Source: Podarcis liolepis (taxonomy: Eukaryota). Taken from it: a DNA stretch of 64,000 nucleotides. Shown here one piece after another: positions 15,071 through 47,982 of the stretch. The stretch lies in the NCBI GenBank assembly GCA_965112155.1, contig OZ218103.1; one strand, written 5' to 3'. Both the position numbers and the translations under genes were made by a program. How positions within the stretch are numbered: the first letter of the stretch is position 1; each line of letters opens with the position of its first letter. The notes beneath the pieces were generated by a model that was given only the letters and a program-made list of their open reading frames with translations, did not search any database and was not told where the DNA came from.

Positions 15071-15465
15071 TGTCCAGTAGCACCTTAGAGACCAACTAAT
15101 TTTGTTTTTGGTATAAGCTTTTGTGTGCATGCACACAATACACTAGTATCTGAAGAAGTGTGCATGCACATAAAAGCTTATACAGTCATACCTCGGGTCA
15201 AATGTGCTTCAGGTTGAGCGCTTTCGGGTTGCGCTCCGTGGCAACCTGGAAGTAATGGAGTGTGTTACTTCCGGGTTTCACCACTAGCGCAGACCATCAA
15301 AATGACATCACGCACATGCGCGGAAGCAGCAAAACGTGACCCGCGCCGTCGCGTCTTACGTTCCATTCAGGATGTGAATGGGGCTCCGGAACGGATCCCG
15401 TTCGTATCCCGAGGTACCACTGTACCAAGAACAAACTTAGTTGCTCTCTAAGGTGCTACTGGACA
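15071..15465. mobile_element. Older fold-back PLE fragment of the same family as 22918-23142, interrupted by a MITE
   Basis: Inverted ends tgtccagtagcaccttagagaccaactaa ... ttagttgctctctaaggtgctactggaca. Degenerate hammerhead gtatCTGAAGAagtgtgcatgcacatAAAAgcttata at 15146-15182. Confidence 0.8.
15183..15422. mobile_element. MITE family B3, nested in the PLE fragment
   Basis: TA|CAGTCATACCTCGGG...CCCGAGGTACCACTG|TA. Removing it and one TA restores the PLE sequence gcttaTAccaagaac. Confidence 0.85.
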
Positions 15466-19539: not shown

Positions 19540-20720
19540 GCGCCAGTCCTGTGGTACAAAAAGATGCGTAAGCTGGCGTGTTATTAAAGGGGGGGGGGGG
19601 ATGAAAGCGCAACTGCGTCTCGATCCAAACCGGACGCTGCGCCTTGAAAGGGATGAGCGGAGTCTTGGCTGATGCAGAACCTGCCACGACCAAGGTCACG
19701 TTACTGGCATCCTAGAAACACAGCATCCCTTCTTGCCCAAGAGGAGGAGGAGAAGCTCGCCTCCCCTTTTGGCTTTCCTCCGCTGACGGGGGCCGAGCGG
19801 CGTCAGCGGCTTCCGACGAACAAGAAGCATGGTGCCGGGAGGAAGCCGAGCGCTGCGAAGAGACACGCCGCCGACACCCGCCCGCCCCTTCGCAGGGCAA
19901 GAGGCGGCGCGGGAGACGTGACGGGCCCCTCCGGGAAAGCCTCGCGCCGGTCCCACGCGGGCGCCGAAAGCCGCTCGGAAGCCGCCGGAGGGACCGGCAG
20001 GCCAGCCAAGCACCTTCCCGGCTCCCGCTGAAGGAGCCTCCGGGGACCCGGAGCCCGGAGGGAAGAGGCGCCGCCCGGGCCCCGGGACTCCCTCCTCTCC
20101 GCCACAGCCGCGGCTGGTCCCCGCCCCTCTCCGCCTTTGTGAGGCCGCGGCGGGAACTCTTCTGCGCTCGCTGCCGGGCTCCCCCCCCGCCTCCCTCTCT
20201 CCGCGGGGCCGCCTGGGGAGCGCCATGTCCTTACCGGGGAGGGGGGGTTGCTTCTCGTACGTGCCAGGGGCTCGAGCCGCGGGGGCAGGGGCCGCCAGTG
20301 ATCCGCTCGCGAGTCCAGCCCAGCGCCGCCGACTGAGCAGCGCCACAAAATGGCCGACGCGACTGCGGCGCTGCTAGCTCGCCCGCCCGCCCGCCTGCCG
20401 CGAGGGGAGGGGAGGGTCCTCCTGTGGGAGGGGCGAAAGGGCCAGGGGGCGTGGCTCCGGCGGAGAGGGCTCGGGGGCCCTCGCGCAAAATCCAGGCGGC
20501 GGCGGCGGCCCGTCACGCGCGCATCCATCTCTCGGGACCCGGAAGGCGCTGCTGCTTTCCCGTTGTCCAGTGTGAGTTCGCCAGTGAGAGGAACTCACGA
20601 CACGGGCAACGAGCGCGTGCTTTTTTTAAATACGCGCTGCTGCTGGGCTCAGGTGTATTAAATCCTTGGAGAGAGGGACCGCTTTTAAGACCACGTTTAA
20701 GACATACCAAACCTTTCACG
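19540..20720. promoter_or_regulatory. CpG island / PHF20 promoter
   Basis: Very GC- and CpG-rich ~1.2 kb block in otherwise CpG-depleted DNA. Contains GC boxes, a YY1-like CAAAATGGCCG (20346-20356), a CTCGCGAG palindrome (20306-20313, BANP/ZBTB33-like core) and an E2F-like TTTTGCGCG on the minus strand (~20482-20490). Confidence 0.9.
20235..20380 (-). other. PHF20: PHF20 non-coding exon 1 (5' boundary approximate)
   Basis: Strong donor CCG|gtaagg at 20234 inside the CpG island, just downstream of a GCCATTTT (YY1-type) element. This is the only extended CpG island upstream of the ATG exon. Confidence 0.7.
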
Positions 20721-20766
20721 CGGGGAACAGAGCAGAGTTCAGTGACTGGAGTACGTGCTTCGTATA

Positions 20767-20992
20767 CAGTGATACCTCGAGTTAAGTACTTAATTCGTTC
20801 CGGAGGTCCGTTCTTAACCTGAAACTGTTCTTAACCTGAAGCACCACTTTAGCTAATGGGGCCTGCTGCTGCCGCCGTGCCGCAGGAGCACGATTTCTGT
20901 TCTCATCCTGAAGCTAAGTTCTTAACCCGAGGTACTATTTCTGGGTTAGCAGAGTCTGTAACCTGAAGCGTCTGTAACCCGAGGTACCACTG
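20767..20992. mobile_element. Tigger/pogo-like MITE, family B1 (TIR CAGTGGTACCTCGGGTTA, TA TSD)
   Basis: TA|CAGTGATACCTCGAGTTA...TAACCCGAGGTACCACTG|TA; close copies at 41819, 44623 and 45287. Confidence 0.9.
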
Positions 20993-22394
20993 TACACAGC
21001 AAGTTCTCTCTGATCCCAACCACAGCCACTGGTGTAGTGGTCAACTCTGAAGTGCAGGCACGCTTCAAAGATAGCGATGCACCTTGGCTTGTGAGCTTAT
21101 ACAACAACAAAAATTAAATATGAATTTTTTGACCAATGCAGACATTACGGCTTCGGTATCAACGCATTTTTCTGCTCACTCGCTCTTCCAACCAAGGGCG
21201 TACCTTGAGGTTGGCCATGTTGGCTCTTAGCCCCCCTGCCAAGGGTGGGTGGGTGTGCAAAAAAAAATTGCTTCTCTCCACTCTGGTTTGGAGTGGCTAG
21301 GAGCCATTTTGCTGGGAGGAGAAGCAAGTTGGTTTAGAATCTTGCTGATTATTTAGGGTGCTCTTTTCTTTTAAAATGCAGGTTATCCTTGTCTGTTATT
21401 TTTCTGGTTTTTAAAAATGTTGTTTTAATGTTTATTTTAATGTTTCTTCTCAACATTTTCCAGGAGAAAATCAGGACCAGATTCTCCCCTTTCAGGTTTT
21501 GGAGGAAACAGTTAAATAAGGTTATATAACATAACTCCTCCTCAGTCCGATGCTCTGAGCAGCAGTCAGAATCTCTGATGTTGGCGACGAGATCACTGAC
21601 CATAATCAGAATACAGCGTAAAGCGTTACGGAGTCGAGTTTCGCCGGCTTTAGAGACCTCTTCATATATAGTTAGATTCTTACACTGGCCATAGGGTGGC
21701 AGTATTTCCCTAAACACATTCTTTGTTTCCATTCCATTAACTGAAGAAATCAGCCGCAGGTTATCGAGAATGAGCAGCAGTGCTTTTTTTCTTAAAAAAA
21801 TGTTTACGGGTACTCGTTCCCTGCCAAGTTTTGATGGGCAGAATTTTACTTATTCTGCCTAATAATATGGACAAGTTGTTGTTGAAGATTGAGACCAATC
21901 ATATACCCCCTTGAAACTGCCCCAAGCAGTGTTGAGACAGCTCTTGCGATGAGGGAAGGGTGCTTCCTGCACGCTCAAGAACACATTCTATTATTTCACT
22001 TTTCTGGACTAAGCCAATGAGCTGAAATCACTACTGTTAGAAGACAGACAACAAATTGCAAGCAGGAATGGCTGGTAGGTAAAAAGTCAGCTAACGGAAT
22101 TGGAGGGGGGATAAAGCCCGTTTTCATACACTCCTCTAGATATTCCTAACCAGAAAACTTCGAGCTGCAGAGTTCACAAATATTGACCTGCAATGTATGA
22201 ACCTTTTGACTGATATAACCTTGATGTTATTTGCATTAGCACTAAGATTAGGAGCTAATATGCATTCCCGGGTAGTGTAACCTGGAAAATGATCTGTCGT
22301 GGGTGAGGACCAATTTTTATATAAACCTATATAGTATGAACTGTTTGCTTTGCATATGCTTAACATTTATTATTATTAATTATCATCATCATCT

Positions 22395-22745: not shown

Positions 22746-23004
22746 GGTAAAATGAGTACTCTGCTATGTCCCAAAACCACAAAAGGGACACCACCGCAAA
22801 GAACTCAAAAGTAGGATGATTTTTTAAAAGACTGTCTGCCATTAACAATGTAAATAAGTTATAGTCACTACTCAGCCAGGAGAAAAGGTGGGGAGAAAGC
22901 AGATATTATGAAAGGTACAGATAGGTAGCCGTGTTGGTCTGCCATAGTCAAAATAAAAAAAATCCTTCCAGTAGCACCTTAAAGACCAACTAAGTTAGTT
23001 CTTG

Positions 23005-23042
23005 GTATGAGCTTTCGTGTGCATGCACACTTCTTCAGATAC
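23005..23042 (-). ncRNA. Mirror-image hammerhead motif on the minus strand
   Basis: Exact reverse complement of 23049-23086 within the palindrome. Confidence 0.72.
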
Positions 23043-23048
23043 ACATGT

Positions 23049-23086
23049 GTATCTGAAGAAGTGTGCATGCACACGAAAGCTCATAC
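23049..23086 (+). ncRNA. Minimal type I hammerhead ribozyme motif (PLE type)
   Basis: GTAT-CTGAAGA-A-GTGTG(CATG)CACAC-GAAA-GCTC^ATAC: CUGANGA and GAAA cores, stem II, stem I GTAT/ATAC, UH cleavage site after C23082, vestigial stem III. Confidence 0.75.
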
Positions 23087-23246
23087 CAAGAACTAACTTA
23101 GTTGGTCTTTAAGGTGCTACTGGAAGGATTTTTTTTATTTTGATTATGAAAGGTAGTTTAAATTCATGCCTTTAGTCAAGGCACAGTTTGTCTAAATCTA
23201 AATCGGTGTTTAAGAACACATAGAAAACAATGATGAACCACAGATG

Positions 23247-23252: not shown

Positions 23253-26200
23253 TATTCTTTAACAACAGTAAGGGACAGTATGTTTTGCTGATTCACATTT
23301 ACAAACATGTTGGCAAAAAGAAAACAATATCCAGTGTAATTTTTAGCCTATTTTACAGCCCTTGAGGGGGGAAAGCATTAATATAACAGCCTGTCTATGC
23401 TTCTGTTAAGTGCCAGGGAGAATTTTAATCATTACCCACTCTGTAGTTGGCCGCAGTGTTTAAATCTGGGAAACGTGTGCACCCAGAGGACATCCCAAAA
23501 CAATTTTTAAAAGCCTTTTTTAAAGGAGCAGGGGTGTATGGCATACTAAAAATTGGTCAACACTTCCCATTTTTCAAAAGAATTATTTGTGTAAAATGTA
23601 GTTGCTCTATGGTATGGCCACAAACAGAGTCAAGTCCTTAGTATGCTGCATGGATATGAGCTCTGTGTGAAACGGAGAAAATAAATTTACATCAAGATTT
23701 GTAATAGAAGCAGGCCCAGGGTACTCTGTTTCAGGCAAGTTTGGGAAGTGTCAAAAGTAGGAGTTTTTCTAATCCAACATATTTACTTGGGAATAAGATT
23801 GAGTTTGATGGGACTCGCTCCCAAATAAGTGTTTGTAGGATTCCAGTTCTAACAACCTGGCACAAAGAGTGAACAGCACTGGCCAAATTCTGAAAAAGGA
23901 GCCTTTTTGAATAGCACCCAGCTCCTCGGAAGGCTCAGGCTAATCTACTTCATCAAGTGCAGCTCAGGAAGAGATAGCAAGGAGCATTCTGCACATGTCA
24001 CAGTGATTGCCTGAATTCTGGATTCAGCTCAAACAACATGTTACAGGCAGCTGTGTGGATATCACCCACATGTGTCTCCCTGGCAATGTAAGGGGTGGAA
24101 AAGTCATATGACATGCTGCAATGCAGTTTCTGTAGCCACCTGCCTTATGTAAAGTAGGGAAACATGAATGCGTTACTAGTGAGATGTACATGTCCACATA
24201 ACATGTCGTTTGGGTTCCAGAGAATGGCTCTGTTCCGATACAAGAAATCAGAAATCCCCAAATTTCTTGGTAATTTAATTGAAAAGTAGCTAACTCTCAA
24301 AAGATAGCTAGAAAAAGGCACACTATAAAGGTGAATGGGAACTTTGGCATTACCAAATAAACCAAGCTAAAGGATCTTTTACAGCAGAACTGGCTCAAAT
24401 AGGGAAACAGTAGCATACTTTGGTTCCACATAATGAGATGGAATAATCTAGTAAGAGTCACAGTGTCTGGAGATCAAAGGATAATGTGCATTCCTCTATC
24501 CATGAAGATCACATCAACCGCTATCTGAGAATTACTAATTCGGTCCGAAGACTCATCACACTGGCACAGGAAAGGCTCAAAGCACTGACTGTAAAAGAAT
24601 ATACAACCTGACTCAATTTTCCAAGATTCTGTCCTTGTCATTTCCATCAACTGGCCTCTTCCCAAGGAACCCAAGCCTGCAAGTCTGTTCAAGGGCTTTC
24701 TGAAGGAGCGACACCCATTTCCAAAATGACGGAGAGGCAAGGACATGGAAGGCTCCTGTTTCAGGTATGTGTCAGCAAAGTGGCAAGAGAAAGGTGTAGA
24801 AGTACTGAGGCAGCAGTCCTACCCCTTCCCCTTAATCAGCAAGGACTCCCTGACTAGTGGAAGGGCAAAGTGGTCAGAAGACTTCAGCCTCGGTGAGAAA
24901 AATCCAACTTTCTGTGAAAGGGTGAAATGAAGTTCAGAGTATCATGGCATCAAACTGCTCTTCTTGCTTAGCATAATTGCTCTCTTCTACCTTAAGACTA
25001 CAACCTGTGTTTTTCAAACCAGAAGTACTGACTGAGGTCCTAACTAATATGGATGAAGGAAATCCATGATCAGATCTCCCAGTGTCTTTTTCTTTCATTT
25101 AAAAAGCAGTCACTGGCGGGGACTTAACCCTTTACTCCTCTCGCTATTTGCCCTAAAGTTCAGAGATGAGGGAAGAGACAGGTATTCTACAGATACTGAT
25201 TTTCCTACCACACTGGATCATGTTTCTCAGCTAACAGCAGCTTGGGAAGGGCAATGTAAGTCTGGAAAGTGCAATGGACATGAAGGGTTCAGCTCCAAAC
25301 CAGTTCAGCCTCCCTACAGCTTCTTTTAACCAAAGAAATAGATATCAGGAGATCTGATCAAGGAGTTCTCTCGTGTTATGTCTAGTTTGGCTTTGTAAGC
25401 CTGAGTGGGAAGCAGAACACAACAGGCATATCTTGAGCTCAGTAAAAGCCTTCATGCTGATCATGTTTGCTCATAACATCTTCACAACAACTTGATACTC
25501 GATTTTAGTCTATGTTGAAGTAAGGAGGAGAAAGGCAGCAGGAGTCATAACTGACTGCATTTTTTAACATATAGAGAAAGTTCCATTCTGGAGAAACAAT
25601 CTGTAAGCTATTTACATTGCTGTGACCTAGCTTAAACTCAAGGGGACAAGGATCATTGCCATTTGAGACATCTAACCCAATGAAAAAGTATATTTGGGCT
25701 AAAAAAATAGCTTGAAATTTAATCAGCCTCTTTCTAAGGTACTATACAGCAGGAGAAGAAAGCAACAGGCAGTCTCCCAAACTCCAGTCCATGACTGCTT
25801 TTCACTGTGGGAAAAGGTTGCTGTTAAATAGCTTGACCTTGGTTTCCAACAATGCCTTCCACTTGGTCCTTCTAATATGAATTGAGTAGTAAAAGTACTC
25901 CAGGCATGAGGAGAGTCAACCTGGATCGGAAGCCACAGCTCATCCAGTGCTGCCAAACTGAACCTTTGGTAAGAGTGGTGTGTTTTAAGGTAGCAAAGAC
26001 AGGTAGAAGAGTTGGAGAAGGATGCAGCCAGCAATTTGAATGGCAGTACTGGCTGCAGCAGGTTTGCTCCAAGGCAGGATATGTGCTATAGTAGCCTGAG
26101 ACAACAACCCTTTTCCTTCTGGGGGTGAAGCTTGATTAGTGAAGTTTCCAATCTTCAGGTGGTGGAAGCAAAATCCCAGTATCTGAGAGCAGTTGGTTCC

Positions 26201-26591: not shown

Positions 26592-26819
<228 letters not shown>

Positions 26820-41670: not shown

Positions 41671-41818
41671 GACAGAAAGAGTAAGAGGAGGACAAAGACT
41701 GGCATCTCAATAGATACTTCTGCTGTTATTTTCCAAGTGGAGGAAACAAAACAGCATTCTCTCTATCTTGTTAAGAATACAGAGTCCAGAGTGACAAGAC
41801 TAGCATTTCAGGGAAATA

Positions 41819-42044
41819 CAGTGGTATCTCGGGTTAAGAACTTAATTGGTTCCAGAGGTCCGTTCTTAACCTGAAACTGTTCTTAACCTGAAGCACCACT
41901 TTAGCTAATGGGGCCTCCCGCTGCCGCTGCACCACCAGAGCACGATTTCTGTTCTCATCCTGAAGCAATGTTCTTAACCCAAGGTACTATTTCTGGGTTA
42001 GCAGAGTCTGTAACCTGAAGCGTATGTAACCCGAGGTACCACTG
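41819..42044. mobile_element. MITE family B1
   Basis: Same TIRs and body as 20767-20992, TA flanks. Confidence 0.9.
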
Positions 42045-42046
42045 TA

Positions 42047-42238
42047 CAATGGAACCTTGTGTTACGTACCGTCCTCTTTGCGAACACTTCGGGTTACGAG
42101 CTCCCGGCTGCAAACTTTCCCCAGGGATGCGAGTAGATGGGAGGCACCATTAGCGAAAGCGCACCTCGGGTTATGAACGGTTTGGGCTTAAGAACAGACC
42201 TCCGGAATGAATTAAATTCATAACTGGAGGTACCACTG
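42047..42238. mobile_element. MITE family B2, abutting the B1 copy through a shared TA
   Basis: CAATGGAACCTTGTGTTACGTACCGTCCTC...GGAGGTACCACTG|TA; homologous to 11435-11669. Confidence 0.85.
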
Positions 42239-44622
42239 TACAGCACTGTTATATGACAGCTGGGGTGGGGACATAATCTGGGCAGGTGAGCAGAGCAGGT
42301 GACAGGCAGAACACTTGTTTGCAAATATCAGATGGCATCAACTGAAGCTAATGAACAGTTTCCTTCTATTTCCTATTACCAAACAGTTACCAATACAAGA
42401 GCCAGCACGACCAGGAAGTCTATTCTTCAAGTTTTGCCTATGTGAAAGCTTTATTCCGAATTCATCGGTCCACAGCATGAAATGCAGTCTGGTTAACCTA
42501 CATAATGTTTTCATTTCTGTTTCCTGTTAATTATAGCTTTTGTGTGGTTGCTTAGGCCTCATGGTTGTAGTCTTGAGTTAAGCTACCTGCAGTAAGACTC
42601 ACCACAGATTAACCAAACTATATCATATATACTAGGAGCAAACTCAATTATCCAAGTGCCGTTCCACGGCACCACCCACCCACAAAATATTCCAAAACAG
42701 TCCAACAAGGGCGTAGCATGCTCAGTGGTGATGGAATGCTGGCTGGCTGTTGTGGGGGGAGGGAATAGAGTAGTTGGGCAACACTTCACACTGCAACATC
42801 TTATTGCAGATTGCACTTGTAAATATGTAACACTAACCCCCCCCATCAGTTGTCTGCCCAACCAAGCAGGGGTTGCTCATACAAAGTTTACTGGAACTTA
42901 TGCCAGACTCAAAGTGGGTCAAATCTATCTGGATGAAGATTGAGTAAGTTAATGAATTAATTGCATCAGTTAGTTAACCAAGTGGTCTTTTGATGAAGCA
43001 GCAGAGTTTAAATTTGGTTAAATACCTGGTGCATTTTATTATATATTACTTTTTGTATAAAGTACTGAGGGAACAATACTTGGAACAAATTTTTGGGAGG
43101 TATGTGGAGAGGTCCTTCCAAGAGACTATAAACTTTCTGCTCTGTAGCCAAGACAGACACGTTACTGTAAAGACTGCATGTTTTTTAACCCTAGTAATTG
43201 ATGATAGAAGAATTTTTTTAAAGGAGAATACTGTGTCTTCCCAGAGATATTCAGAATTTTAAGTTTCTTACTGTTTTTATTTTATTCAGATTTGTGTAAC
43301 TTTGATTTATTTGAACATGTGTTAAAATAGGGACCACTTTTTCATGGTAAACACTGATTTGCCTGTGAATTTTAGAATCTTACATTTGTTTATGTTGCAC
43401 AATATATATATTTTTATTTGGAACTCTCTCAATTTTGTTTACCTTGACTTGTGTTACTTTCATATGGCTATGTACTTCTCTTTGTTAAACCCTCTTGCTT
43501 TGTGATGGTCTGATGACAAATGAATCCAAATGGCAGTGGCAGAGAGAGTTGGGTAGTTAGAACAAATGGTCAGGAAACCCAATGAATTTAATCCCCAGTT
43601 CTGCTCTTCAGAAGAATTAGCAGCAATCACAACAGAGAACAGTTAATTTGATGACTCCCCAAAAGTATTTTTAGCTTGTCTTCAGAAAAGGAAATATTTT
43701 TATTTCACAACAAAGAAACAAAGGGAAACACACAGGGCTGCATCCTGCATTTGATAGGATACAAGCGAGCAAAATATCCTTAATATAAACTGGCATGGCA
43801 AATACGACTGCACCAAGTTTGCTCAGGAAAAGCTTATGGAGATGCAAGAGCCACTGTTTCCAACCCCCCCCCCCCAAAGTTGTAACTCAAAAGCATATTT
43901 ACCAATGGCTCAAAATACATTTGAAGAACACAAAGTTGAGAAAGATCTAGTATAATCACACTTACAATCTAACTAGACTTGACACATCTCTCCCCCCTTC
44001 CCTCAACAAAGATTTATGACTGAATTTTATTAGCATTTAGAACAGCCATGCTGGATGCCATATTGAATTTTCAGCAAAACTCTCACCGTGCTCAAGATTT
44101 GCACAGAGAAATAGTAAAACCTAAAAGGTGGGTGAACCATTGCTGGGTGAGAGAGATTCTGTCACAACATCTCCACAAACTGTCACCTGAATCCTCTCAT
44201 TGCACAAAGAGGCGTGGTTCACTTAATACACAAACTAGTCCTCAGGAAAAAAACTTGCATGTGGATTAAGTCCAGTCATTTTGGATATTGAGCGTGATGG
44301 TGAAGCGCAATATAAATTACTACAGCAAATAAGTAAATAAAACAAACTGGGATGTATCAAGTAAAGGCATTGCACTCACAAAACTCCTGCACATGCAATC
44401 AAACTTTCCCTTCCTCTCCTCCACTTCCCTAAATCTGCTCTTGGGGTCCTCCTAACCCTCCAGAGCAGATCTGAGGGGCACACAGGGAAAGGAGAAGTAG
44501 GGAAAGTTTAATCGGAAGTCATTTTTCAAGTCCAATATTTCATTGGCTTCCACCCATTACATCTGACACAGCCATACTGTTGATGATGAATTTTTTAAAA
44601 CAACTTTAGAGTGTATATTTTA

Positions 44623-44873
44623 CAGTGGTACCTCAGGTTACAGACGCTTCAGGTTACAGACACTTCAGTTACAGGTTACAGACTCCGCTAACCCGGAAAT
44701 AGTACCTCGGGTTAAGAACTTTGCTTCAGGATGAGAACAGAAATCGCGCAACAGCGGTGCGGCGGCAGCAGCAGAAGGCCCCATTAGCCAAAGTGGTGCT
44801 TCAGGTTAAGAACAGTTTCAGGTTAAGAACAGACCTCCAGAACGAATTAAGTTCTTAACCTGAGGTACCACTG
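44623..44873. mobile_element. MITE family B1, reverse orientation
   Basis: Body is the reverse complement of the 20767, 41819 and 45287 copies; TA flanks. Confidence 0.9.
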
Positions 44874-45286
44874 TACACTGCTGGAACATTTGAGGACTGA
44901 GAGCCTCTTAACATTTCTACTCCCACAGTTCCTCCTTCATCTACCATCAGAGCCTAAGGCTGTGAGGAGAGATAGTAATATAGCAGCAGCAGCAGCCACC
45001 GCCCAATGCGGAAGCCTTGGTCTGTGAGGGACTAATTAATACCTGGTTGCTGCAACAGTCAGTTCTAGGCCAGGAGTTCCAGCTGCAGAGTGCCACGTTG
45101 CAACAACAGAGAACTGGTGGGGGAGGGAGGGAGATTTCTATACACCTTTGCTCAGCTCTAGAAAACATTCTTCCATTGTCCTTTTTATTGTGTTTTAAAT
45201 ATATTCTAAGCTGCCTCGAGAGCTTCAGCTATCCGCCTTGGTAGCTCAGTTGGTAGAGCAAAAGACTCTAAGGAGCAGTAGAAGTA

Positions 45287-45503
45287 CAGTGGTTCCTCGG
45301 GTTAAGTACTTAATTCGTTCCGGAGGTCCGTACTTAACCTGAAACTGTTTTTAACCTGAAGCACCACTTTAGATAATGGGGCCTCCTGCTGCTGCCGTGC
45401 CCCAAAGCACGATTTCTGTTCTCATCCTGAAGCAAAGTTCTTAACCTGAACCTGGGTTAGCGGAGTCTGTAACCTGAAGCGTATGTAACCCGAGGTACCA
45501 CTG
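45287..45503. mobile_element. MITE family B1
   Basis: Same TIRs and body with a small internal deletion; TA flanks. Confidence 0.9.
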
Positions 45504-47982
45504 TACTCCAGAAGGCAGACAGGCAGGCAATGTCAGGATTCCCCACCCCCACCCTGACATCTTCGGACAAGGGCATTTCTCAAGTTTGTCCTGTGCAACC
45601 CTGTGAATTAGCATACTACTTTGTAATGGCAAAGCTACAGCACTGTTGGTGCAAAAGACTGGCCTTAAAAACACACACACAAAAAAACAACCGCACAAGT
45701 GTGCAAACGTCAAGATTACGCCCTAAGAAATGAATGCAGCTAGTGCAAAGCCTGCTATTCCACCTCTCTATTTTAAGCACCACTTTCTTCCTCCTCTATG
45801 AAAGCTGGTCTCAAGGCAAGCTCTTCCACCTGCCACGTTGTTGAAACCTGAGAACTCTCCATGTAACAGACTGATAGGTTAGAACAGATGCGTCTCAACA
45901 CCACCAGGGGGAAAGGCTGCCAGCTTGCATAATTCTTTTAGGCTTTGCCAGCTTTCGTTTAGAAAAATAGCCTCATAGGTGCCAACTCTATACGTGTGTC
46001 AAAAATGCAAACGGGCTTGCATTCTGCACAGTTTTCAACAGGTGTTATATCCTTTTTGTGCAGTTGTCTTTGTCTATATCAGCCAACGATTAAAAAACGT
46101 CATCGGCAGCTGTTCATATGGGATTATGTGAACTTATGGCTTTATAATATTTTGTCTGCACTTCTGTCTCAGTTCTGCCTCACAGAAATTCTGTGTCATC
46201 AGATTTGTTTTATTTTTCTTCAAGCAAGCAGACCCTAGTATTCTCGGGCTCATGCAATAGCTGGGAGATTTAAGAGGGGCCCTGCTAACTAATCCAAATC
46301 TGCCATGGAGCAGGGAAGAAGATTTTTAAAGAGACAGAAATTCATTGGGGAAGGAGGTGAGAAATGGAGTTTAGCTGTTAGGTTTGGGATCCAAAGAAGA
46401 AGGGAGACTAAAAGTGCTCTCACTACCTGAAAAACTCTCAGCTTCATACACAAATTAACAGTTGGAAGAAGAGCAATCAGTAGCAAAAGCTCACCTTATT
46501 GCTCCAAAACACCCGCTCAGAACATGGAGAAATATCACCATGGAAATGATTAACCTTGTAGACTTAGTTTTAGCAAACAAACCCTTTTTTCAAATACAAT
46601 CATATGTCTGACTAGTCAGTGAATGTAATACCATTTTTATGAGGACCAGCCAAGGTTTCAAAATGCAGTTTGCAAAGCTTTATTTTATTTGTCTAACATG
46701 TACATCTTTATTGGAACTGTTTATTTTAAAGTCAGTGTACAGTTTTCACCCCCACCGTATCCCCGTATACATACTGGCACCAAATTTCGGTAAGGACTCC
46801 CCCAGCTCTGGGAGGGGGAAGGGGGGTACAATGTAAGCCTTCACATCTAGAGACTGGGAAGGAGATAAACCTACACAGCCCATTTCTATTTCATTGTTGA
46901 TTTTTTGCATGGCCAAAAGTAAATAAAAATCGGAAGAGGACCAAGTTTTTTTGTTTTGTTTTAAGGCGCAAGATACAGAAAAGACACTTGTTGGGTTACA
47001 TTTGGGAGGGGGAAGGTTTCTAAGCTTGCAAAGCTTTTGATTTCCATAGAGATATTTATCAGGCTGAGGTTAATGTTGTATTTAGATTTGTCAGGGAAGG
47101 ACACAGACTGGTTTTTGTGTTTTCAAAAGGAGCCATGTCCATTTCTGCTTAGTCCCAGTGGGCTTTGGGCGACTTTAGCAGGCGGACTAGTCTTAACTTA
47201 ATCATATCTGTGAATATTTCCACCATTCTAAAGATGGCAGGGGTGGGGAGGGGGAACCAAAGCAAAATAGCAATAAGGATAAGCTGGACTTTATATCATA
47301 CCAGAAACACCTACTTTTCCCCACACCCATCTACTTATCTACACACACACAGAGAGAGAGAGAGAGAGAAAGAGAAAGAGAGAGGGATAACTATCTTACC
47401 TAAATAAGAATTCTGAATAACTTAAAAGCTCATATATGCATTTTGATCTGCAAGTTAGTCATAATACAAACACAAAGTAGCATCCTACCATTTTTGTGGT
47501 TTTTGAATTAGCATGTAGTCACTGCTATAAAATAATTTTAAAGTTTTATTTTATTTGCCACACCAGCCAAAAATGTGCTGCTAAACATTTGTTTTGGCAT
47601 GAAACCATCTGTCCATTTAAAATTCTGCATAGGGTACAGTTGCCGGTTTCTTCCCAATTATCTTCCATACTGGCATTTTAAGTGATTGCATAACAATATG
47701 ACCATCTTTTAGTTTTTAGGGCAGGGAGAGTATTTACTTTGCCACTGTCCCTTGGAAAAAAACATACAAATGCCTATGTGCTCAGCAGATGTGATCCCAA
47801 GGCTGAAAACACAGTTTTAAAGGTGTCAATTTCTTTCCGAAAACAGTGTTTTCAGGTGAGTGTGGTTTGAAAAACCCCAGTTCCCACTGAGCTCCCCATA
47901 GGTGTGGATGGGATCAACTTTTTTTTAGCACAATCTACACTTCATTATGCACAGTTCCATGTTCCAGGAGCAGGCTGGGCTG

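Follow-up and report, generated by a model that had tools for sequence, protein, structure and literature searches.

Introduction

In the twin priming of L1 retrotransposons, both strands of the target site prime reverse transcription, and the resulting inverted arms do not overlap and meet at a junction that holds microhomology or inserted bases. For Penelope-like elements (PLEs), head-to-head pLTRs with a palindrome at their junction, a tail on one side only and a target-site duplication (TSD) have already been described (PMC3846280, PMC8557442). How PLEs insert and come to have inverted ends with a one-sided tail is a mechanism that three reports leave open (PMC3846280, PMC8557442, PMC11167929); the published model, drawn from rotifer elements, is self-priming on an antisense template (PMC3846280). 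In vitro, the protein of Poseidon (PAc), a PLE of the anole Anolis carolinensis, cuts both strands and extends them, starts at two sites that bracket the tail and is predicted to dimerize; that report is not known to link the two sites to inverted arms (PMC11167929). The minimal hammerhead ribozymes that PLEs carry are described as weak on their own (PMC4209133, PMC11167929).

Here we analyse a palindromic insert in a 64,000-nt stretch of DNA, the whole of which we refer to as the window. The insert resembles Pen2a_Av and related rotifer elements in its head-to-head inverted, 5'-truncated pLTRs, junction palindrome, one-sided tail of ~30 bp and TSD; further likenesses are a pLTR with TATA and Inr-like motifs and a pLTR that, together with the tail, covers the first codons of the ORF (as described in PMC3846280, PMC8557442). 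It differs in being a minimal form without any ORF that is very abundant, and in a TSD of 12-13 bp, compared with 8-10 bp in the rotifer; moreover, the present data speak for twin priming more than for the self-priming on an antisense template put forward for the rotifer elements (PMC3846280). Its ribozyme motifs share with the minimal hammerheads of metazoan PLEs a short helix I, an extra base between positions 9 and 10.1, the G10.1-C11.1 pair and a palindromic 15.2-16.2 segment, as well as thousands of dispersed copies and nearby dual motifs on opposite strands. Unlike the motifs detailed in PMC4209133, which lie 100-700 bp apart, those described here are 6 bp apart, have a 5-bp stem II with a self-complementary loop and are known from sequence.

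With PAc, which cuts and extends both strands, the family would share this activity and two reverse transcription starts that bracket the tail; both have AT-rich targets and a hammerhead, which in PAc is protein-assisted (PMC11167929). PAc belongs to a different clade, the present ORF having a CX4CxxC linker; here the hammerhead lies wholly in the 5' leader and the starts flank the ATG, whereas the text on PAc places its starts ~110 nt into the ORF (PMC11167929). The L1 layout recurs in three of our insertions (L050, L052 and L146); in contrast to L1, the arms here mostly cover each other almost completely, each of the two starts is fixed, and most insertions are inverted. Non-LTR retrozymes, as characterized in bioRxiv 10.64898/2026.07.22.740005, are likewise non-coding, PLE-derived and equipped with a type I hammerhead. 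They form head-to-tail tandem arrays, whereas the window insert is one head-to-head unit with no sign of unit replication; as a retrozyme would have at least two head-to-tail units with complete hammerheads, we rejected this identity.

Layout and age of the insert

The window contains a perfect inverted repeat at 22948-23143, 196 bp in two loop-less arms of 98 bp centred on 23045/23046, exactly as the sequence-only reading had described it, and no other perfect palindrome with arms longer than 9 bp occurs in the 64,000 nt. The 13-bp TSD, ATTATGAAAGGTA, is present in exactly two copies in the window (Table 1). That earlier reading had both copies flank the palindrome; both copies and their empty site are there, but the left one does not adjoin the repeat, being separated from it by 30 bp that are unpaired on the right side. 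Because of this one-sided tail, the insert proper is asymmetric and covers 22918-23142 (225 bp). A23143 is at once the final base of the palindrome and the first base of the right TSD copy, and at its junction the right arm is a near-match to the target. In pLTR numbering, where +1 is the A of TTTCAGTGTATC, the insert consists of two head-to-head pLTR ends that both begin at +2 and extend to about +98 in one case and about +128 in the other; it has neither the pLTR TATA box nor an ORF. We infer that the central AT is where two cDNAs that had reached the start of the RNA were end-joined by their 3' ends.

Contigs from run X3 (organism B) and run X4 (organism C) join 22904 directly to 23143, which leaves an empty site with a single copy of the TSD. 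A contig of X1, which is possibly the assembly's own sample, crosses the right junction (23119-23198) with 0 differences, and contigs of X5 end at both edges of the insert, which fits either presence or heterozygosity. Absent from two related organisms, the insertion is young, in keeping with the very recent event that had been proposed.

Table 1. Positions of the insert's parts, of a second fold-back in the window and of copies of the parent element
Feature	Position	Strand	Remark
Left TSD copy, 13 bp	22905..22917	+	single copy at empty site in X3 and X4 contigs
One-sided PLE tail, ~+99 to +128 of pLTR	22918..22947	-	holds the ORF's first ATG and first codons
Left (tailed) arm, 5'-truncated pLTR end	22948..23045	-	inner end +2
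Minimal type I hammerhead motif	23005..23042	-	predicted cut after 23009
Centre, AT	23045..23046	.	2 non-element bases; flanking arms each begin at +2
Right arm, tailless pLTR end	23046..23143	+	stops at U-rich tract just before ATG
Minimal type I hammerhead motif	23049..23086	+	predicted cut after C23082; descriptor PMC4209133
Right TSD copy, 13 bp	23143..23155	+	empty site
Older fold-back, related subfamily	15071..15465	.	core G12 lost; TA-flanked MITE-like insert
Regions of L136-L143 (parent copies)	C1:5950500-5958000; C1:101117500-101130000; C8:70764500-70773500; C3:23279500-23290500; C2:93628500-93637000; C1:132638500-132646500		

Parent element and genomic abundance

Directly linked to the same pLTR is a repeat unit of 3,008 bp that contains an open frame of 926 codons, in which profile matches place RVT_1 at residues 457-602 (E 1.4e-11) and GIY-YIG at residues 824-876 (E 2.1e-5); longer copies carry the end of the GIY-YIG frame upstream of the ribozyme core. 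A parent with reverse transcriptase and GIY-YIG domains supports the derivation of the insert from an EN+ Penelope-like element, and the Penelope-like origin that had been suspected is thereby upheld. Upstream of GIY-YIG, at residue 786 of P0001, stands a CX4CxxC linker. A CX2-5CxxC linker is given as a mark of Neptune and Nematis (PMC8557442), and the parent would accordingly be classed as a Neptune-type PLE by a marker that Neptune shares with Nematis. In the pLTR, TATATAGA starts at -30 and the hammerhead occupies +4 to +41; the ORF's first ATG follows at +100 (reference L138), and the tail corresponds to the first codons of that ORF. The pLTRs occur as partial tandem and inverted units in L136-L155. 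Several copies in L136-L143 keep intact 926-codon frames that are mutually 99.7-100% identical and lie in tandem-plus-inverted arrays of up to ~11 kb, which suggests that the family is currently or was recently active.

By exact pattern searches of the genome (G000), the 39-base ribozyme core has 9,801 exact copies, against 0 for a reversed control. The sequence-only reading had surmised that the fold-back architecture recurs and had suggested counting fold-back against single-arm copies: tight fold-backs, with two cores no more than 8 bp apart, number 582 loci, so recurrence is borne out, and among 100 consecutive cores 35 are without an inverted partner. Twin priming, if it operates, is thus not obligatory. 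A TSD of at least 10 bp accompanies 9 of the 19 single-arm copies checked. Inverted insertions form a continuum from ~180 bp to >6 kb with outer ends that are alike. Their centres differ widely among the 50 tight loci listed; the exact centre of the window locus is found at 9 loci genome-wide, and the 5 others that were fetched carry different subfamily markers (tail, T-tract). Varied centres, together with differing markers where the centre is the same, indicate that the palindromes appear to be formed anew at each insertion and have no master copy. The window insert is most likely a dead by-product at an ordinary locus, in the shortest common insertion form of a young and abundant PLE.

Ribozyme motif and its folding

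Each strand carries a 4-bp stem I, CUGAAGA, an extra A, a 5-bp stem II with G10.1-C11.1, GAAA and the palindromic AGCU. The core boxes CUGANGA, GAAA and NUH, stems I and II, the extra 9.1 base and the palindromic 15.2-16.2 segment are thus all present, and position 17 falls on C23082 of the plus strand and on 23009 of the minus strand. A regular-expression search combined with a test of stem II located hammerhead-type motifs in the window only at 23053 (+) and 23038 (-). The earlier claim of a minimal, dimer-type hammerhead on each strand agrees with the descriptor published for such motifs, as far as it is set out in PMC4209133, yet the covariance-model check proposed for it went the other way, the Rfam hammerhead models giving no match to the whole window (E up to 1) or to a single arm (E up to 10). 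Matches of Rfam miRNA-hairpin models over the palindrome all scored below the gathering score; they reflect hairpin shape only and were discarded.

Since single arms fold no better than shuffled sequences (z +0.3 to +1.0), their minimum free energy is no evidence for a ribozyme. When two cores are cofolded, a weak prediction has them pair through the self-complementary stem II and not through the AGCU dimer helix. In 30 of 211 older-family matches, which are decayed copies of uncontrolled relatedness, stem II has 69 Watson-Crick pairs out of 120, compared with 47.5 after permutation (1 of 2,000 permutations reaches this value), and stem I has 50 out of 120, compared with 39.9 (73 of 2,000); this excess over permutation, weak for stem I, may point to a genuine RNA structure in the parent elements. 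Among L156-L185, at least two older PLE-like families keep the hammerhead core with differing stem I and stem II sequences, and several of the older copies have TCA directly before stem I, like the young family.

As RNA, the full insert is computed to fold into one long stem (-180 kcal/mol, z -30.6) in which the hammerhead pairs tested have probabilities of ~1e-19 for stem II and ~1e-45 for stem I; shortened transcripts enter the hairpin already before the sense core is complete. A read-through transcript is thus predicted to form a 96-bp stem that excludes the hammerhead fold and traps the ribozyme, just as had been anticipated. A self-silencing ribozyme follows from this fold as a predicted consequence, whereas the idea is not supported in so far as it implies a selected function, to which nothing points. 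No adaptive reading of the trapping is needed, because the insert lacks the TATA box and is absent in two relatives and because the older fold-back has decayed.

Geometry of inverted insertions

The sample was drawn from three sources: the 100 exact cores that come first on contig C1, 46 of the 50 tight loci listed, and 20 stretches that surround ORF-bearing matches. Some loci gave no arm pair for want of an anchor, and the 105 candidate pairs were reduced to 89 by dropping 2 duplicates and 14 pairs without a TSD of at least 9 bp, several of which were pairings of separate insertions. The 89 comprise 39 insertions unselected for shape (from the first 100 C1 cores and biased to young copies), 38 tight ones, including the window locus, and 12 long ones, the tight and long sets having been chosen for being inverted.

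The TSD measures 12-13 bp in 67 of the 89 and is 72% AT; among 300 mismatched flanks used as a control, 2 reach 9 bp and 0 reach 12 bp. In 88 of the 89, one arm is tailed and the other tailless, with median ends at +131 and +95; L005 has two tails. At the inner ends, 45 of the 100 consecutive cores begin between -1 and +4, and 5 between -2 and -20. The mode is +2 (19 of 100), with 14 at +4 and 2 at +1, the search pattern limiting ends to +4. An apparent pile at -94 was disregarded, having arisen from extension without gaps against a reference that contains an indel; gapped ends were used instead. Of 38 unselected insertions, 22 have a tailless arm that extends inward past the tailed one by at least 5 nt, 6 show the reverse and 10 are tied (p=0.004), and at snap-back-type junctions the inward-longer arm is the tailless one in 13 of 20. 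Between partner arms, the positions of the inner ends show no significant correlation (Spearman 0.21, p=0.21). Overlap with the target is alike at both ends (mean 1.9 versus 1.5 nt), which gives no hint of L1-like annealing being required at the upstream site.

Sequence variants tie the two arms of an insertion together. Minority variants common to both arms number 104 (with 56 private to an arm), whereas permutation gives a mean of 8.9 and a maximum of 37 in 500 permutations. Ten insertions of the long set show 0-2 differences between arms over 230-2,727 bp, closer than all of the 52 cross comparisons made for each; in the older L010, L014, L029 and L046, the arms differ by 1.1-2.4%, and 3-10 of the 52 cross comparisons are as close. 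A GGAT/GGAA marker in the window arms was left unused, as it is a homopolymer site at which arms disagree in 10 of 76 insertions. In L050, L052 and L146, the inverted tail abuts the tailless arm, the two being nearly non-overlapping, within a single TSD of 10-16 bp.

Many junctions, among them the centres of L051, L064, L036, L103 and L115, hold short templated copies of nearby sequence, which we take to resemble polymerase-theta end joining. Unrelated sequence lies between the arms in L022 (1591-1885, with a tRNA- or SINE-like beginning) and at the centre of L058, which suggests template jumps. Short head-to-tail duplications of the pLTR end are seen in L027, L017 (1647-1696) and L087; where such duplications hold two complete cores, they could form a dimeric hammerhead in cis.

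Mechanism of insertion

We propose, at a probability of roughly 0.7, that an inverted insert is made of two cDNAs reverse-transcribed from both nicked strands of the target and joined mid-way. The parent element, the TSD, the tailed and tailless arms, the variants shared by the arms and the pile-up of inner ends are direct observations, around which the following steps are reconstructed. The GIY-YIG domain would nick the two strands 12-13 bp apart; one 3' end would prime at a downstream start near +129 and so produce the tail, and the other at the upstream U-tract near +93. Both would copy one RNA, or RNA of one source locus, toward its 5' end. This end is predicted to fall at +1/+2, with TATATAGA 30 nt upstream and stem I of the hammerhead immediately following. 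An RNA start at this place would centre the palindrome at the edge of the ribozyme. The two cDNA 3' ends would finally be end-joined, with AT here and with microhomology or short templated inserts elsewhere.

Several observations argue for this sequence of events. Inner ends that pile up 30 nt after a TATA box suggest run-off at the RNA 5' end, and shared minority variants together with near-identical long arms indicate that both arms come from one source. Where the tailless arm extends further inward and the tailed arm further outward, neither arm can have been copied from the other. An account with two cDNAs is matched by the anole PLE protein, which extends both strands from two sites that bracket the tail. 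Against twin priming, the RNA start is deduced from the distance to the TATA box and from the points of truncation, and arm-to-arm gene conversion after insertion can also equalise arms; moreover, the tailed arm is the longer at both ends in 6 of 38 insertions, an outcome that fold-back could give as well. The two tails of L005, the inner-end mode at +2 instead of +1, the uncorrelated inner ends of partner arms and the more divergent arms of the four older insertions count on the same side. It is an even call whether this family inserts by default through double target-primed reverse transcription, with two fixed starts on a single RNA, in which the polymerase primed at the tail displaces the upstream cDNA, the palindromes being double strong-stop cDNAs whose centres map the RNA start. 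If twin priming holds, the inversion of the pLTR, the presence of a tail on one side only and the palindrome at the junction would all follow from a single mechanism, which would replace the antisense self-priming model; the element would also seed the genome, as a by-product, with perfect hairpins that could silence it. A search of the freely accessible literature found no paper stating a twin-priming model for PLEs, although one may be in print in subscription journals, and none on a palindromic hammerhead Penelope of Anolis or a palindromic Neptune of lizards.

Private variants common to both arms would equally arise if a single cDNA (or antisense RNA) snapped back at its 3' end and copied itself, an endonuclease later trimming the tail off one arm. 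Such a fold-back would suit the templated snap-back pieces at many centres, the natural snap-back junction at 39 loci and the several long insertions in which arm ends lie within 20 nt of each other. We nevertheless consider it unlikely: fold-back of a sense-templated cDNA cannot give the inward-longer tailless arm seen in 22 of the 38 unselected insertions and at 13 of the 20 junctions of snap-back type, abutting arms without overlap exist (L050, L052, L146), zero-loop centres would be hard to prime, and the antisense version requires the extra trimming step.

A different doubt concerns the inner ends, whose pile-up at +1 to +4 could reflect a stop of the reverse transcriptase or a processing site, set by structure or by the TTTCAG before stem I that looks like a 3' splice site, and not the start of transcription. 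The sequence before +3 does resemble a splice acceptor, a small alternative hairpin is predicted across -4 to +11 with the inner-end mode at +2, and in Drosophila virilis the end of an intron is mapped to the 5' end of helix I (PMC4209133), which counts for the processing site. Against this stand the position of TATATAGA 30 nt upstream, the more than half of the 100 cores that read through the +1 to +4 point, and the junction sequences displayed, in which no shared upstream exon is visible; TATA and Inr-like motifs similar to these are on record for rotifer pLTRs (PMC3846280). A stop or processing site is, on balance, a doubtful source of the pile-up.

That the palindrome is itself a replicating non-autonomous element (MITE- or retrozyme-like), kept for switching the ribozyme off or for siRNA silencing of the family, is highly improbable, and the non-autonomous insertion envisaged earlier is not supported in this sense. 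Hundreds of near-identical fold-backs exist and the computed trapping of the ribozyme is essentially complete; PLEs yield small RNAs in a rotifer (PMC3846280), which counts for a silencing role, and read-through into the insert is possible from a minus-strand gene whose stop codon lies ~3.4 kb away. The centres, however, vary, with only 9 of 582 loci sharing that of the window and the 5 others fetched differing in subfamily markers; sizes run continuously from 180 bp to >6 kb with the same ends; the insert has no pLTR TATA box and is absent in two related organisms; and the older copy in the window is decayed and interrupted. An assembly artefact from a fold-back read can be all but dismissed, since the empty sites in X3 and X4 confirm the TSD, the right junction is present in X1 and the tail is one-sided with the same geometry throughout the family, even though none of the contigs compared spans the centre of the palindrome.

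The family is young and offers thousands of clean insertions besides several 926-codon frames that are intact, and for it our preferred reading, twin priming, makes sharp predictions: nicks 12-13 bp apart, starts near +93 and +129, an RNA start near +1/+2 and a single template. These predictions are suited to the existing in vitro assay. The hundreds of perfect 100-bp hairpins may, in addition, supply the host with double-stranded RNA.

Second fold-back and gene context

The second fold-back, which the sequence-only reading had cited as a recurrence, does show the architecture again but belongs to an older subfamily (82.5% identical). In each of its arms an A replaces core G12; the left arm is cut short, and the right one is interrupted by a MITE-like element. 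A TSD of at least 6 bp was not found at this fold-back. The MITE-like element (~15184-15422) is flanked by TA and lies immediately 3' of the point at which the hammerhead of this older copy is cleaved. It has relatives at 20762-21002, 41816-42050, 44617-44878 and 45284-45506, and its ends are presumably of Tc1/mariner type.

A Pfam scan of the window (286 of 288 stop-to-stop frames of at least 62 codons) revealed pieces of WW, MyTH4 and RhoGAP domains on the minus strand, with a stop codon at 26592, and we take this domain order to be that of ARHGAP39. The insert lies ~3.4 kb past the stop of this RhoGAP gene and brings in the first AATAAA after that stop on the minus strand (23134-23139), which is preceded by ATTAAA hexamers at 25718, 24274, 23424 and 23247. 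Judged by these signals, the RhoGAP transcript could have its 3'-end formation changed by the insert or acquire a hairpin from it. A CpG island at 19700-20650 (within ~19-21 kb; GC 0.65, observed/expected CpG 0.9) holds a likely first exon on the minus strand, with a splice donor near 20233.
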